The position numbers and the translations under genes are program-made. Positions 8,770-64,000 of a stretch of DNA of 64,000 bases are shown here, piece after piece. The notes under the pieces were generated by a model, which saw only the letters and a list, made by a program, of their open reading frames with translations, searched no databases and was not told the DNA's origin. The DNA is from Escherichia phage W22: the sequence record PV159336; one strand, 5' to 3'. The stretch's first letter is position 1. Every line of letters starts with the position of its first letter.

Positions 8770-9457
8770 TTAGTCGTTCCTCCGCTTGCTTAAAAATATT
8801 TACATCGGCTTCACAGCCTAAGTATTCTCTACCTGTTAAAAGTGCCGCAACTTGTGTTGTTGCACTTCCAGAGAAGAAGTCTAAGACTACATCTCCTTCG
8901 TTGGTATGTATATTAATAAGGTCACAAAACAAAGTCAAGTGTTTTTGTGTTGGATGAAAACGATCTGCTCCTTGATAGATAGGATACTCAAACACACCCT
9001 TATGGTAGGAAGCATTGAAGGTTGGCTTCGAACCTTTAACACAAACAATAGCCATCTCTTTAGCGTTACTAAGGTAGTTAACACCACTGTTGATGGGTAC
9101 AGGGTTTGTTTTAATCCATTCAATAGTACGGAACATACGAAAACCAAGCGGTTCAAGGATTTCACGTAGCTCCTGGATCTTCCAGATATCATACCAAACT
9201 ATGCAAGTACCACCTTTTCTAAGCACCCTATAGGCTTCTTTGAATACTTCTTTAAAGTAAGGAATATCTACAACGTCCCAGTCACCAAAGTTGTAAGATA
9301 CACGGAATCTATCCGTATCTTTTCCAGTAGGCTCTCCAGATTGAAAATTTGTGTCACGAGAAATAGCATATGGTGGGTCAGTAAGAATCAAATCTACACT
9401 ATTGCTTTCGAGGGTTTGCAGGTAGTTTAATGCAGTGTTGTTTACAAATTCGCTCAT
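8726..9457 (-). CDS. DNA methyltransferase (N6-adenine/N4-cytosine class, motif IV before motif I)
   Basis: ILTDPPY catalytic motif near N-terminus and VLDFFSGSATT AdoMet-binding motif near C-terminus; GGAGAT RBS. Confidence 0.8.
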   Translation of the reverse strand: MSEFVNNTALNYLQTLESNSVDLILTDPPYAISRDTNFQSGEPTGKDTDRFRVSYNFGDWDVVDIPYFKEVFKEAYRVLRKGGTCIVWYDIWKIQELREILEPLGFRMFRTIEWIKTNPVPINSGVNYLSNAKEMAIVCVKGSKPTFNASYHKGVFEYPIYQGADRFHPTQKHLTLFCDLINIHTNEGDVVLDFFSGSATTQVAALLTGREYLGCEADVNIFKQAEERLNEYNEQQNHPESTD

Positions 9458-38005: not shown

Positions 38006-40780
38006 TTAGTTTACCAGTTTATTTATGTCTGGTAAAAGATTTATTTCACCTAAGAAATCACCTTCACCTTCCTCTAGCCAACTCTCATATGCTTGTGCAT
38101 GATTATAGTTACCATCAAAAGAATCTGCAACAAATTTTTCTACAGTTTTTCGAGATGTGCCAGCGCCAAATACACCAAGTTTAATACCATTGATCGGTAA
38201 AGTAGGGCTTGTTGGTACTTTCTCTGTTGCAACACGGTTGATATCTATAATCTCCTGTACGGTTGTATTCCATTGTAAGCATTTAACACAACGGGTGTGC
38301 GCTACATACAGTAGGTTTCGCTCTGCCTCTTCTAGTCCTACCCATTCACCAGTCTTTTTATCATAGTTGGAAGGAAAATCATTAGCAACAATAACCTGAT
38401 CCCACTCCAAACCTTTAGACTTATGTGCTGTAGTCAGTGTGACTTTTGCTGTAGGAGAATTTCTATGCGTTCTAAGTGTATGTGCTATAGTGTTTGCCTT
38501 ACCAGAAACTACAATGTTTAACAAGCGTTTAGCATCTGGATCAGCCTCTGCACACTCAACAAATTCATTCCAGTCTGCGTAAGGTAATACAGTTTCATGT
38601 TTTACTTTCTCAATATCTCCTCTCCGAAGAGCATTAACACTATCTACCATAGAGATAAAATCCCTGGTATCTACGTTAATAATAATTTCTTCCCCATCTG
38701 CAATACGATCCATTGCCTCCATAAGCAAGGTTAAATTCTTGCGAAAGATGATAGTGTAAGGTTTTGTATAGTCTACAACATCTGATTTGTAGCTACCTAC
38801 TACAGTATCAAAGCCTTTACCAACCAAAGGATGACGCAAAGGTTCTTTATCACTTAAAATCATATTCGCAATGTTTGCCACTTTGGGGCCAAAACGGAAG
38901 CAAGCAGTTAATGGAAGCTCTGCCCCATACTTAGCTGTTTCAATCATCATATTAGAGCTACCTCTAAATTGATAAATGCAGTTATGGCTAAGAATTTCAT
39001 TGCCAAAGAAGTTAGCAGTATCCTCTACTTCAATATCATAATAGATACCATCACTATCTACAATGTCCACAATTTCTTCTGCCGTTACAGTATCACCATC
39101 TTTTACTAACACAGACATGCCTTTAAACAAACCCGCTGCCGGAATTAAATTATATTTGGCAGTGTTCACAGAGGACATGCATTCTTTTAAAGATGCAAAC
39201 GGAACTATTTCAAGGATCTTTTGTGCAAAACTCAATGCTTCACGATAAGAATTGAAATATTTACGTACACGGTAACGACCTTCCAATTTAGCAACACTTA
39301 CGCTTACACCTGCTTCAATGAGTGAGGCATAGATTGGCATTTCACTTTCTGTCCACTCAAAGCTAACTTGTGTTCCTTTACAACCTTGTGCTCGCAAAGT
39401 CACTGTTAACATTTTTCTTGCATCTACTGTACAATTGATGCTGTGCCAATGTGGATAAGCAAAATGATAATCTTTATCCTCTAAAAGTTTAAAACCATTT
39501 TGTCCGAATTGTTCAAAGATATTGTTGATCCTTTCTTGATTAATACCGCGTGAACTTGCCTCAAATACACAAGTAGGAATGCCATATTGTAAACTGTATG
39601 CCATTTCTTTTTCCATAGCAGCTTCACGGTTTTCAACAATATCCAACACCCACAACTTCTGTGCTTTTTCAGAACGTGTACGTTGCCCCAGTTTAGAAAA
39701 ACCTTCTTTATCATCGAATTTGTTAGTGATCCCTACTCGGAAACCTAAATCTTTTCTCCACATTAGGTATACCACCATCTGATCATCTTTCAGAACATAA
39801 GGTGAAGCCCAAATACGATGGTTATGTGTCATATCTAAAGTCTTACCTTTAGCAGTAATAATATTCCTACCTTTTGTACGTGTAGATAAAGTTTTATTTG
39901 TTACTTTTCTAAATGTAACTTTACCGTTAGAATAAGACTCTACCTTATCACCGATTTGCAGGTCTTTCATTGTAACCTGACCATTTTCGGTATTAAGTAC
40001 CGTGTTTTCTGACACACATTGGAATTCATCACCAACTACCACAATTTGTTTGGCAGATTTAGCATTCCGCAGAATAGACAAGAATGCAGGGTTAACATCC
40101 TGGAATTCATCCCCAAAAATAATGTCATAACCAAGATCAGCACCAGACAATTCAAACAATTTTACATAGGTGTCATGCGTCATCAAAGTATCTGTGTTAG
40201 GGTCAATGCGCTCTCGCCACAATTGTTTTGCATACTTAACTACTTCTGTAATTAGTTTGTGTTCGTTAATACCTTTTCTTTTAATATCTGCAAGATGTAC
40301 ACTAGGAAAATGTTTACGGCTGATAAAAGGATCATCCGAAAATTCAAACTTACCTACGGTTTGCTTGATCATTAAACCAATCATAGCACGAGTTAAAAGT
40401 GTTTTCCCTCGTTTATCAATAAGATTATTAATCTTAAATTTCTTTGCTATCTCACTACCTGTACCTGCAACGTTAACATACTGTCCTTCTGGTCGTGACA
40501 GTTTTGCACGTAAACGATGATCCAGGAATTGATAGCAAATGGAATGCAATGTACGGCATTCTACATTTGGTGGCATCTTACGCCGTGCTTCTTCTGCCAT
40601 GCTTTTATTGAAAGCTAAGTAAAGAATGCGATCTTCTGTACTGTTAGCCAGCAAATAAAGTGTTGACGTTTTTCCTGATCCAGATTTAGCTTGGATAGTT
40701 AAAAACCGATGATCTGGAAAAGCCTCCTTAATAGCTGTTTGCTCTTCTGTTGGAGTAAAACTCAACTCTTTCTTAGCCAT
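38006..40780 (-). CDS. SF1 DNA helicase (UvrD/Dda-like) interrupted by an intein
   Basis: Start taken at MAKKEL; Walker A AKSGSGKT, motif II GDEFQD, motif III split as VVGDEFQ / CIYQFRGS by a 346-aa insert. Confidence 0.8.
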   Translation of the reverse strand: MAKKELSFTPTEEQTAIKEAFPDHRFLTIQAKSGSGKTSTLYLLANSTEDRILYLAFNKSMAEEARRKMPPNVECRTLHSICYQFLDHRLRAKLSRPEGQYVNVAGTGSEIAKKFKINNLIDKRGKTLLTRAMIGLMIKQTVGKFEFSDDPFISRKHFPSVHLADIKRKGINEHKLITEVVKYAKQLWRERIDPNTDTLMTHDTYVKLFELSGADLGYDIIFGDEFQDVNPAFLSILRNAKSAKQIVVVGDEFQCVSENTVLNTENGQVTMKDLQIGDKVESYSNGKVTFRKVTNKTLSTRTKGRNIITAKGKTLDMTHNHRIWASPYVLKDDQMVVYLMWRKDLGFRVGITNKFDDKEGFSKLGQRTRSEKAQKLWVLDIVENREAAMEKEMAYSLQYGIPTCVFEASSRGINQERINNIFEQFGQNGFKLLEDKDYHFAYPHWHSINCTVDARKMLTVTLRAQGCKGTQVSFEWTESEMPIYASLIEAGVSVSVAKLEGRYRVRKYFNSYREALSFAQKILEIVPFASLKECMSSVNTAKYNLIPAAGLFKGMSVLVKDGDTVTAEEIVDIVDSDGIYYDIEVEDTANFFGNEILSHNCIYQFRGSSNMMIETAKYGAELPLTACFRFGPKVANIANMILSDKEPLRHPLVGKGFDTVVGSYKSDVVDYTKPYTIIFRKNLTLLMEAMDRIADGEEIIINVDTRDFISMVDSVNALRRGDIEKVKHETVLPYADWNEFVECAEADPDAKRLLNIVVSGKANTIAHTLRTHRNSPTAKVTLTTAHKSKGLEWDQVIVANDFPSNYDKKTGEWVGLEEAERNLLYVAHTRCVKCLQWNTTVQEIIDINRVATEKVPTSPTLPINGIKLGVFGAGTSRKTVEKFVADSFDGNYNHAQAYESWLEEGEGDFLGEINLLPDINKLVN
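38981..40018 (-). other. intein (346 aa) within helicase motif III
   Basis: Starts CVSENTVLNT (block A), TxxH at MTHNH (block B), ends YDIEVEDTANFFGNEILSHN followed by +1 Cys; flanks rejoin as GDEFQ-CIYQFRGS. Confidence 0.7.
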
Positions 40781-40781
40781 T

Positions 40782-41258
40782 TCAACCTCTCTTAATTTGT
40801 TTAACAAGCATAGGAACAAAATCTCGTTTTAAAATTTGTTCAATAATATGATCAGGTAGCTGTTGGAAATTATAATTAAACGCTACTGTTTCACCTTTAG
40901 GTGTTTCTACCCGCACATATAACATGTTGCGAAGTTTATCCACTTGTGCTGTATATTCTAAACCACGTAATTGATGCATTGCAAACATCAAATCATCAGT
41001 TTCAGTTTGGAATCTATCCCTTGTCTGCATCAAGGATAAGGCAAAAGGTAGATTTTCCCTAAGAGCCACCTTCTTAGGCACTAGTGAAGGGAAATACTCC
41101 CCAATAACTTCCTGTGTAAGCTGAATACACTCTTTTTCAAGCTGGTTTTGTTCCTTGAGTTCACAAACACTTTTTTGTAAAGTGTTAACCTCTTTTTGCA
41201 AAGCTGCTAGTTGAGCACTTAACTTTCTTTTTTGATTACGACCGAAACGTTTAGACAT
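40782..41258 (-). CDS. hypothetical coiled-coil protein
   Basis: 158 aa ORF. Confidence 0.45.
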   Translation of the reverse strand: MSKRFGRNQKRKLSAQLAALQKEVNTLQKSVCELKEQNQLEKECIQLTQEVIGEYFPSLVPKKVALRENLPFALSLMQTRDRFQTETDDLMFAMHQLRGLEYTAQVDKLRNMLYVRVETPKGETVAFNYNFQQLPDHIIEQILKRDFVPMLVKQIKRG

Positions 41259-51917: not shown

Positions 51918-52132
51918 TATTTTGAAAATTTTTATTTTTATAAAAAGGGGTGTGGGTTTCATGTACAGAAATTCACCCTCTGCACAGTATATCCAGAGTA
52001 AATATTATTCTGTACTCTGTTAATAAAGTATTTAATTTGTTTGTTGGATTATGGTATCTGATCTTTAAAAGGCATACTATCTCTTAACTACTACTTATAA
52101 CAGAACAGTAAAATCATTTTTATAAAAAGGAC

Positions 52133-52340
52133 AAAATTATTTAAAGTTTTTACAGATTTTTGGGTACAAATTTTGAAAATGAAAAGTTCAAGTTTGGTCA
52201 AAATTATTTAAAGTTTTTGTACGTATTTCTATCCAGATTTTGAAAATGAAAACTTCAATTTTTTAAAAATTCCCCAGTTTATTTAAAGTTTTTTTGCCTT
52301 TTTCCGTAGAAAAATCAAAAATGAAAAGTTCAATTTCGTG
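52133..52340. repeat. three tandem AT-rich direct repeats (about 67-77 bp units)
   Basis: Each unit has ATTTAAAGTTTTT (52139, 52206, 52281) and TGAAAATGAAAA(G/C)TTCAA (52174, 52241, 52316). Confidence 0.7.
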
Positions 52341-52359: not shown

Positions 52360-52470
52360 GATAATCATTCTCATTTGTAAATGAGAATCATTATCATTTA
52401 ATTATGTAAATGATAAGCATTCTCACTAAGAGAATGAGAATCATTAGCAAATGAGAATTTTTCTCATTTA
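52360..52470. promoter_or_regulatory. palindromic operator-like array built on TGAGAAT/ATTCTCA
   Basis: Three inverted repeats: 52360-52395 (17-bp arms), 52418-52436, 52449-52469; at least 7 copies of the 7-mer in 110 bp. Confidence 0.6.
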
Positions 52471-62375: not shown

Positions 62376-62404
62376 TTGACACCGGATCACGCTTACATTA
62401 TTAT
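62376..62404 (+). promoter_or_regulatory. sigma70-like promoter with lost hairpin
   Basis: TTGACA 62376-81, 17 nt, TATTAT 62399-62404; conserved CACGTAGGGC start motif present but stem absent. Confidence 0.5.
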
Positions 62405-62450
62405 TTATCACGTAGGGCAAATCATTTTAAACGGTAAACGAGGAAACACC

Positions 62451-62834
62451 ATGAGCAATATCATCAACCTGGCAGCGACTGTAAACGGTAAAGACTTTAA
62501 CGGCGCTGTAGACCGTGATCCTATGTGGTGCTTATCAGTGTTTAAAGGCGACCTGGTTGAAGTTAGAACAACCGAAGGGTATAGCGATGATTATAAATGC
62601 GAGATCCATTTACATAACTGGTACACGGGTAAAACTTATGCGCTGAATCACGCGTTTATCGGGAAAATTGAATATCGCGAAATGATCGACGAAGAAACGG
62701 GGCAAGATTTTAGCGATTATGTTTATATTCGTTCCGAAACATTAGCCGAACGGTTGATCGAGAAAATGAAAGCAAAAAATAAAATTAATTTATCTCATTG
62801 GATTGATATAACAAACGATCCAGCTTATCAGTAA
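62451..62834 (+). CDS. hypothetical early protein
   Basis: Start taken at MSNIINL; 127 aa. Confidence 0.5.
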   Translation: MSNIINLAATVNGKDFNGAVDRDPMWCLSVFKGDLVEVRTTEGYSDDYKCEIHLHNWYTGKTYALNHAFIGKIEYREMIDEETGQDFSDYVYIRSETLAERLIEKMKAKNKINLSHWIDITNDPAYQ

Positions 62835-62848
62835 ATAACATTCCATAC

Positions 62849-62876
62849 AAGGGCGCAATAAGCGCCCTTTCTTTTT
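62849..62876 (+). terminator. rho-independent terminator
   Basis: GGGCGC-AATAA-GCGCCC then TTTCTTTTT; same hairpin as 57288-57304. Confidence 0.7.
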
Positions 62877-63169
62877 ACCTCAATAAAGATGATAGCTTTT
62901 ACCTATCAAAAACGTTCACCGAAAAAAGTGAATAGATCGCGGTATCGAGCTAATCAAGGAGCAGATGAATAACCATACCATGAAGATCATAAGGCGCTTA
63001 CAACGTGTTTTAGACCGCTTATTTTTAATTTCTCCATGTAACTATCTGGCAAAAACAGCCTTTTTCTTATCTTTCCTCTTAAATAATAATCATTCTCATT
63101 TATAGCTGATTATTTATGCAATAAACTGAATAATGCAATAATGATAATCATTCTTAACTTAAGACCATC

Positions 63170-63480
63170 TAACCTATAAAATAATAAGTTATCTAACTAA
63201 ATTAAAACTAATTATCTTACTTTTATTTATAACTTACTGTTACTATCTCATTGATAACCTTATATTAAACAACAATAACTAATATAAATCATTACTAAGC
63301 TAAATATAATCTATCTAACCTTTAAAACTATAACTATAATCTATTTAATTATTGCACAAAGTAACTATTAAATCGTTAGTAACATTACTAAATAATTAAT
63401 ATCCTATCTATTTATGATCTAATCTTTACCTTACTATCTATTACCTAAATAATCATTTCATACCGTAATCATTTCATACA
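63170..63480. repeat. G-depleted, extremely AT-rich low-complexity tract
   Basis: About 10 G in 300 nt on + strand; built from CTAA/TTAT/ATCT-type words; no ORF. Confidence 0.7.
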
Positions 63481-63523
63481 ATAATTATAACAAGAAATAT
63501 AATTCGCAAGCGTATCATTAGCA

Positions 63524-63692
63524 GCCTATGCCGGACACATAGGCGGCTAATAATAACGCAACTACACACCTCACATAATAACTATCACCGATAGTTATTA
63601 TCTGTGCTTATGTAGCTTGCAACAATTGCAAGCGCAACAATATACACGGTATATTGTATTCCCTTACATTGTTGCGGTGCGTTATTATTAGC
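63524..63692. repeat. cluster of nested inverted repeats (cruciform/structured-RNA candidate)
   Basis: GCTAATAATAACGC 63546-59 pairs with 63679-92; inner IRs at 63524-44, 63576-63600 (11-bp arms), 63615-33, 63633-76. Confidence 0.65.
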
Positions 63693-63900
63693 TAATGTTT
63701 AGAACATTGGCTATAATATAAGCTATCCAATAATAAACATAGTGAATAATGACCCTGATGATCATAATGCGCCACCTTCCAGGGGGCGCTATGTGAACAC
63801 AAAGAAATCTTTCTTGTCAAGAAAAATATTACCATTATTGCGCAAAATTATTTACATCTGAATAGATGGTTTTTCATACTATTGGCCCAATGTAACTTGT

Positions 63901-64000
63901 CATTTGTTGAGCATAGTTATAGCCTATTTGTTGCAATGTATCTTCCTATTTGTTGCCCTAACTATTGCTATTTGTTGGGTACAACTATTCCTATTTGTTG
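63901..64000. repeat. iteron-like array: five copies of C(T/A)ATTTGTTG at 22-23 bp spacing, running off window edge
   Basis: Copies at 63901, 63924, 63946, 63968, 63991. Confidence 0.7.

Follow-up and report, generated by a model that had tools for sequence, protein, structure and literature searches.

The repeat array and its surroundings

The stretch of DNA analyzed here (the window) comprises 64,000 nucleotides of Escherichia phage W22 (record PV159336) and carries genes for tailspikes, a family A DNA polymerase, a T7 gp4-like primase-helicase, NrdD and a UvrD-type helicase. Matches to its last 3 kb are found in 130 phage records; Escherichia phage EC.P2 ranks first with 98.4% identity over 2.9 kb, and all close matches belong to Justusliebigvirus (Stephanstirmvirinae), i.e., they are phi92-like myoviruses with genomes of about 148 kb. 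Four records of about 146.4 kb that are labelled 'Campylobacter phage' (MG065639, MG065645, MG065656 and MG065689; phages A150, A145, C3 and A110a, respectively) are about 94-95% identical to the window region, and their host label looks doubtful. The UvrD/Rep-type helicase ORF (937 aa, 38006-40819, minus strand) is split by an intein (Pfam Intein_splicing and Hint, residues ~267-613). ARAGORN found neither a tRNA nor a tmRNA in the whole window.

The last right-end gene is closed by an intrinsic terminator, and about 1.1 kb of non-coding DNA separates this terminator from an array of short direct repeats with which the window ends. The features of this region are the following (DTR, direct terminal repeat; a slash marks a repeat boundary or a junction resembling one):

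62849-62869, plus strand: intrinsic terminator closing the last right-end gene, a Gp30.8-like ORF (62376-62834)
~63000-63500, plus strand: G-depleted, AT-rich non-coding stretch (GC 17-24%, GC skew down to -0.77)
63515-63695, minus strand favoured: conserved multi-hairpin element of ~170 nt with a 14-bp closing stem, three internal helices and a 3' hairpin
63871-63884, plus strand: conserved left anchor TTTTCATACTATTG, which precedes the array and is present in all 14 sequences compared, window included
63885-64000, plus strand: whole variable array of five units, each made up of a 12-15 nt spacer and a 10-nt core
63900-63909, plus strand: core copy 1, variant TCATTTGTTG
63906-63912, plus strand: internal GTTG/AGC, formed where core 1 joins the AGCATAG spacer; the same 7-nt motif as at both DTR boundaries
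63924-63933, plus strand: core copy 2, CTATTTGTTG
63946-63955, plus strand: core copy 3, CTATTTGTTG
63968-63977, plus strand: core copy 4, CTATTTGTTG
63991-64000, plus strand: core copy 5, CTATTTGTTG, the final base of which is the final base of the window

Five cores, one TCATTTGTTG and four exact CTATTTGTTG, thus lie within the last ~100 nt of the 64-kb window (63900-64000). A previous sequence-only reading had described them as five copies of C(T/A)ATTTGTTG spaced 22-23 bp apart and separated by ACTATT-containing spacers. Four copies fit this description, whereas the first, TCATTTGTTG, deviates. The start-to-start distances are 24, 22, 22 and 23 bp, such that only the first falls outside the range given, and ACTATT occurs in two of the four spacers (CCCTAACTATTG and GGTACAACTATTC) but not in the other two (AGCATAGTTATAGC and CAATGTATCTTC). 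Tandem Repeats Finder (TRF) reports the array with a period of 23 and a score of 72. The exact 10-mer CTATTTGTTG is absent from the remainder of the window on both strands, with about 0.1 copies per strand predicted from composition. The array is also the sole site in the window at which any 10-mer is present in three or more exact copies inside 100 bp, and none of 200 block shuffles gave such a cluster. We can thus state with confidence that the repeat array is real and far beyond chance, and the claim of short phased repeats at the window edge was correct in this respect. An IHF site was also considered; WATCAANNNNTTR was not matched by eye on either strand.

Other tandem repeats in the window are found at 52132-52262 (67-nt period, 2 copies, score 178) and at 52364-52425 (29-nt period, 2.1 copies, score 80). 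At the right edge of the G-poor stretch resides a 16-nt tandem repeat, AATAATCATTTCATAC (63448-63485, 2.4 copies, TRF score 62), which is also present in EC.P2 and KKE7M. A GC-rich hairpin, GCGCCACCTTCCAGGGGGCGC, at 63769-63789 has no U-run on either strand and occurs at the same position in EC.P2 and UAB_1. At the place equivalent to the G-poor stretch, phage Schickermooser of the sister genus Phapecoctavirus carries a non-homologous stretch that is likewise G-poor and rich in A and C (L019, ~240-560).

Correspondence of the array to the terminal repeat boundary

The alignments of the window to its closest relatives stop where the array starts. The array was compared in 13 relatives, namely EC.P2, KKE7M, UAB_1, ECGD1, AMO3598, BME3, phiWec187, KKP_3264, alia, phi92, PD114, VEcB and one IMG/VR contig. 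In all 13 it sits between the left anchor TTTTCATACTATTG and a right anchor, AGCCTACTTTCTTAAAAGCG (also given as AGCCTACTTTCTTAAAAGCGCAATAAA), and in all 13 the last core is directly followed by AGCCTAC. This heptamer begins at nucleotide 1 of the phi92 DTR, the two copies of which (left, 1-343; right, 148270-148612) are annotated in GenBank and are identical. A DTR of 343 bp that also starts with AGCCTAC is annotated in GenBank for UAB_1, and the paper on this phage also gives a short DTR (PMC11350853). For BME3, packaging was determined with PhageTerm and a 342-bp DTR was reported (PMC12210895); its record has exactly 342 bases between the AGCCTAC start and the record end. The records for PD114 and VEcB end with ...CTATTTGTTG (...TTTGTTG) and have AGCCTAC at position 1. 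According to a 2025 paper, Stephanstirmvirinae genomes terminate in direct repeats (PMC12695924). A terminal repeat of 328 bp has been published for Schickermooser (PMC6563267), and it measures 329 bp in the record of this phage.

The left anchor and the array of the window are homologous to the DTR boundary of phi92, UAB_1 and BME3, and the right edge of the array, which is the window edge, matches the left DTR boundary of the relatives. On these grounds, the array very probably marks the left DTR boundary. Judged by homology, core copy 5 is the upstream half of the predicted cut junction TTGTTG^AGCCTAC. It had been proposed that the array continues past the window. This is probably wrong, because the window ends on a core as do the PD114 and VEcB records, and the arrays of the relatives stop on a core and pass into the terminal repeat, AGCCTAC, at once. 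The simplest reading is that the window would represent the tail of a record laid out like that of phi92 minus the second DTR copy, with the array ending there. Two of the options put forward from the sequence alone, a terminase recognition site and a repeat near a genome end, agree well with an array that abuts the left boundary of an annotated 342/343-bp DTR in the relatives.

Searches of environmental sequences added one relative. Neither IMG/VR nor the JGI metagenomes contained an exact match to the last 44 nt of the window. Scanning metagenomes and IMG/VR for a 17-mer of the junction gave 25 loci, without exception chance matches in unrelated contexts, and a 27-mer junction scan yielded one genuine match, an IMG/VR contig.

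The two ends of the repeat share a motif. The left DTR boundary reads ...TTTGTTG/AGCCTAC and the right one ...AAAATCGCGTTA/AGCACCTC (...CGCGTTA/AGCACC), i.e., both conform to GTTR^AGC on the same strand. The motif is also present in other genera of the Stephanstirmvirinae:

Schickermooser and ZCKP1: left boundary GAATGTTG/AGCAAG
Schickermooser: right repeat boundary CGCGTTA/AGCACT; ZCKP1 carries the same motif
phAPEC8 and ukendt: GCGATATGTTG/AGCACC
phiWec179: GGAATGTTG/AGCACG
Klebsiella phages KP2025 and FKP3: two and three upstream units, respectively, of hairpin-[AT]T[GT]GTTG/AGC
Citrobacter phage Tr1: two upstream units of hairpin-[AT]T[GT]GTTG/AGC

The upstream half-site of the predicted left cut is thus reiterated in several lineages of the subfamily, and the compact 22-bp array is the Justusliebigvirus version. 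The internal GTTG/AGC within the array of the window (63906-63912) may be a pseudo or alternative cut site.

Further peculiarities of this region were noted in individual records. In FKP3 (PP895363.1), the three hairpin+TGTTG/AGC units are located at about 1695-1860, and ~314 bp of the DTR region occur twice, at 1871-2184 and at 2371-2684, with the second copy near the record end; this second copy probably arose during assembly because of the terminal repeat. In AMO3598 (PQ226818.1), a segment of ~100 bp within the DTR (~1385-1500) has the opposite orientation to that in all other relatives. It is bordered by the inverted repeats GGCACTATT and AATAGTGCC, and EC.P2 has the same repeats with the segment uninverted. 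To the right of the DTR and before the first left-end gene (~9340-9440), EC.P2 furthermore contains two copies of AAGGGG(G)TGTGT[CT][GA]AAA(A)TAAT about 80 bp apart, which may be phage promoter or regulatory motifs.

Variation of the array and possible functions

Copy number differs widely among the genomes compared:

one core: UAB_1
two cores: phi92, EC.P2, KKE7M, VEcB and the IMG/VR contig
three cores: alia, phiWec187 and KKP_3264
four cores: ECGD1 and BME3
five cores: the window, PD114 and AMO3598

EC.P2 has two copies and the window five, despite 98.4% identity over the preceding 2.9 kb. The order of the units is shuffled among genomes as well (A-B versus B-A and A-D versus D-A when unit types are lettered). 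In the window, the order of the CAATGTA and AGYATAG units is the opposite of that seen in alia and AMO3598, and those with CAATGTA and GATAAAA trade places between phiWec187 and BME3. The spacer repertoire comprises CAATGTATCTTC, AG[CT]ATAGTTATAGC, CCCTAACTATTG, GATAAAATTATCC, CA[AG]TATAAACTA and GGTACAACTATTC, to which a spacer-less unit, TTATTTGTTG, has to be added. While the spacer adjacent to the DTR may be of any type, the core adjacent to the DTR is constant. Most copies of the core CTATTTGTTG in the 14 genomes are exact, whereas at least six spacer types occur, in changing order. The array is a fast-evolving series of cassettes with a conserved core. When pooled across genomes, the core spacings are 22 bp (14 times), 23 bp (6 times), 24 bp (4 times), 10 bp (4 times) and 11 bp (once), and a phasing by two helical turns, as had been suggested for the window, holds only roughly.

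Two trivial explanations were rejected. Over the last 120 nt of the window, two frames of the plus strand are open, yet the reading frame is not conserved, and a coding role of the array was dismissed because units of 10, 22, 23 and 24 bp occur, most of these lengths not being divisible by 3, and copy number differs between genomes. An assembly artefact was likewise dismissed, since many records (EC.P2, KKE7M, ECGD1, AMO3598 and alia) have the array in their interior and its units are non-identical.

We propose that the packaging terminase recognizes the cores, which would be reiterated half-sites of its cut and recognition junction, and assign to this reading a probability of roughly 0.55. 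It is put forward because the core represents half of the left cut junction, is invariant beside the cut and is reiterated upstream of it, and because the cut motif occurs at both boundaries across genera. As would be expected of a terminase element, the last core is found beside the DTR boundary in 13 of 13 relatives, and the motif is conserved while its surroundings vary. In concatemers of phages with a DTR, there is one repeat per junction. The terminase has to recognize this junction and cut both repeat boundaries, and the repeat needs to be duplicated. In replicating concatemers, the array would lie directly upstream of the left-end cut, ...CTATTTGTTG^AGCCTAC..., while in virion DNA it would be located just inside the right-hand DTR copy. 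The cores would be bound by the terminase, most likely by its small subunit (TerS), and would place the cut at the left DTR boundary or reinforce it or, equivalently, flag the right end of the unique sequence for initiation or termination of packaging. A single core would be enough, as in UAB_1, and extra copies would be gained, lost and shuffled via slippage or unequal recombination between identical cores. PHROG and Pfam scans of the seven flanking ORFs detected no terminase small subunit and returned only PHROGs of unknown function and Pfam Gp30.8.

Several observations speak against the terminase reading. UAB_1 is viable with one core, hence the array as such is dispensable and the extra copies are possibly neutral. 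The spacing is not strictly helical, with distances of 10, 11, 22, 23 and 24 bp. In addition, the two GTTR^AGC motifs are direct and not inverted, an orientation that would not be sufficient to explain how the two strands are nicked in a staggered fashion.

The first of these points leads to a different explanation, in which only the core abutting the DTR is functional and the upstream copies are neutral duplications of the junction half-site that drift in number and order, having arisen through slippage, unequal crossing-over or imprecise processing of concatemer junctions. Such a neutral by-product is possible, albeit on balance rather unlikely. It would readily account for the single copy in UAB_1, for the range from one to five copies among genomes that are ~95-98% identical in the flanks, for the shuffled unit order and for the presence of 10-bp mini-units (TTATTTGTTG). 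Moreover, junction duplication is suggested by the similarity between the end of the B-type unit, AGCCTATTTGTTG, and the start of the DTR, AGCCTACTTTCTT. On the other hand, the core is exact in nearly every copy while the spacers diverge, and this implies either selection on each core or very recent homogenization. It is also at odds with neutrality that KP2025, FKP3 and Tr1 keep two to three upstream boundary-like copies in a different architecture.

Besides packaging, transcription has to be considered. A promoter-like sequence, TTGATT-17-TATAGA, was seen by eye 35-70 bp inside the DTR, and TTGATT...TATAGA/TAATAA is found at the same DTR position in Justusliebigvirus and Phapecoctavirus. In circularized or concatemeric DNA the array lies 40-150 bp upstream of this promoter-like element. 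The cores could then be sites at which a phage or host transcription factor controls a sigma-70-like promoter in the DTR, or leftward transcription into the right-end non-coding region. We regard this as very unlikely. The left-end DTR copy in the virion has no array upstream, and if it is this end that enters first, the promoter must work array-free. A range of one to five copies, combined with a variable distance to the promoter, would be unusual for an array bound by an activator or repressor, and the core is absent elsewhere in the 64 kb. Note also that matches in a sigma-70 promoter scan are no more common in the region than in shuffled sequence.

The sequence-only reading had further named iterons of a replication origin, bound by an initiator protein. 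The array has the right form for this, with short direct repeats about two helical turns apart, and an AT-rich, strand-asymmetric stretch is located 400-900 bp upstream. Nevertheless, this option found no support and is judged very improbable. One copy suffices in UAB_1, and the number and order of the units are unconstrained instead of forming a conserved arrangement. The seven flanking ORFs, i.e., the immediate neighbours within the genome, gave no initiator-like match in PHROG and Pfam. The replisome is T7-like (PolA and gp4-like primase-helicase), and replication of T7 starts from transcription and not from iterons. Finally, the position of the array coincides with the DTR boundary to the base.

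The multi-hairpin element listed above resides ~200-380 bp upstream of the DTR boundary, and homologues are present in 132 phage records. It was aligned for 14 sequences from five lineages (Justusliebigvirus, two Phapecoctavirus groups, the Klebsiella KP2025/FKP3 group and Citrobacter Tr1), and the minus-strand consensus fold of this alignment has 51 pairs, 13 of them with compensatory changes and none broken. When 14 sequences from the two E. coli genera are aligned, 99.7% of the cells pair, compared with 25-54% when the partners are slid, and the covariation score was not reached by any of 500 shuffles. The minus strand folds with -80.1 kcal/mol (z -9.1) as opposed to -67.0 kcal/mol (z -7.5) for the plus strand, and several G-U pairs of the minus strand, whether invariant or variable, would become A-C mismatches on the plus strand. 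Rfam, searched in E-value mode with the equivalent 2-kb stretch of EC.P2, gave no match. The element could be a leftward-transcribed non-coding RNA or a single-stranded DNA structure acting in end replication or processing, and it may be part of the same end-processing region as the array or an independent non-coding RNA. In its most far-reaching form, the idea of a shared end-processing region would turn the ~1.1-kb right end into a single end-processing module, in which the half-site array sets the DTR boundary and the multi-hairpin element serves as a packaging or replication RNA or as a single-stranded DNA fold-back that duplicates the terminal repeat. The fold-back idea is modelled on the hairpin intermediate that has been proposed for T7 concatemer processing. 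We consider this combined module unlikely and present it as speculation.

Phages similar to phi92 and phAPEC8 are popular therapy candidates, and their short terminal repeats are routinely annotated. While the DTR of these phages is known, we found neither the boundary array, its hypervariability and the shared GTTR^AGC motif nor the multi-hairpin element described in the searchable literature, nor did we find an account there of what defines the genome ends, and none of the papers searched included the junction sequence. The comparison places the predicted cut junction to the base, with TTGTTG^AGC on the left and CGTTA^AGC on the right. This yields a simple rule for orienting and trimming assemblies from the subfamily, a candidate pac element with which transducing particles or synthetic genomes could be engineered, and a natural copy-number series (1 to 5) for studying repeated recognition sites in terminase cutting. 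The advance is a modest one, as a known principle is extended to another phage group and no new mechanism is introduced.

Comparison with known packaging and replication sites

With iteron origins, such as the O-protein repeats of the lambda ori and the origins of plasmids and P1 (oriR), the array shares direct repeats of ~20 bp with roughly helical spacing. However, such origins depend on an initiator gene of their own, on a fixed minimum of iterons and on an unwinding element next to them. We found none of the three here, and one copy suffices.

The array has no sequence in common with the packaging sites of T7, lambda, P1 or SPP1. Among these sites, the hexamer repeats of P1 pac and the pacL and pacR boxes of SPP1 are recognition elements around a terminase cleavage site, and the array resembles them in consisting of repeated short motifs around such a putative site. 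P1 and SPP1 are headful (pac) phages with a single initiating cut and permuted genomes, whereas both ends are fixed in the phages studied here. The P1 pac hexamers are moreover regulated by Dam methylation, while the core described here is devoid of GATC. In lambda, the R1-R3 sites of cosB are several short sites for TerS (gpNu1) beside the nick site cosN. A repeated short motif beside the terminase cut is the feature in common, the binding of TerS being lambda's part of the comparison. The two systems differ in that lambda has 12-nt cohesive ends as opposed to the duplicated 343-bp repeat, and in that its three R sites have an invariable number and orientation and act together with an IHF bend, while no IHF consensus is evident by eye in the array.

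The closest parallel is offered by T7 and T3, which have in common with the phages studied here a short direct terminal repeat and the processing of concatemers at fixed sites. The 160-bp terminal repeat of T7 has short-motif arrays (SRL and SRR) beside it, and a motif array abuts the DTR here, too. To our knowledge, the function of the SRL and SRR arrays is not settled. In the T7 genome (NC_001604), (A/C)CTAAAG is repeated every 13 nt at nt 175-341, and a second, looser array lies immediately to the left of the right-hand repeat. The core and the T7 motif are unrelated (CTATTTGTTG versus CCTAAAG) and so are the periods (22-24 versus 13 bp), such that the arrangement alone is alike. In contrast to T7, the array described here touches the repeat boundary, its core is half of the predicted cut junction, it is seen on one side of the repeat only and its copy number varies among close relatives; moreover, its carrier is a 148-kb myovirus and not a podovirus. 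At the T7 concatemer junction, TerS (gp18) recognizes pacB and TerL (gp19) cuts pacC (PMC9860248). The phage from which the window derives resembles T7 also in its genes for a T7-type PolA and primase-helicase, and these replisome genes fit a T7-like lifestyle with processing of concatemers.
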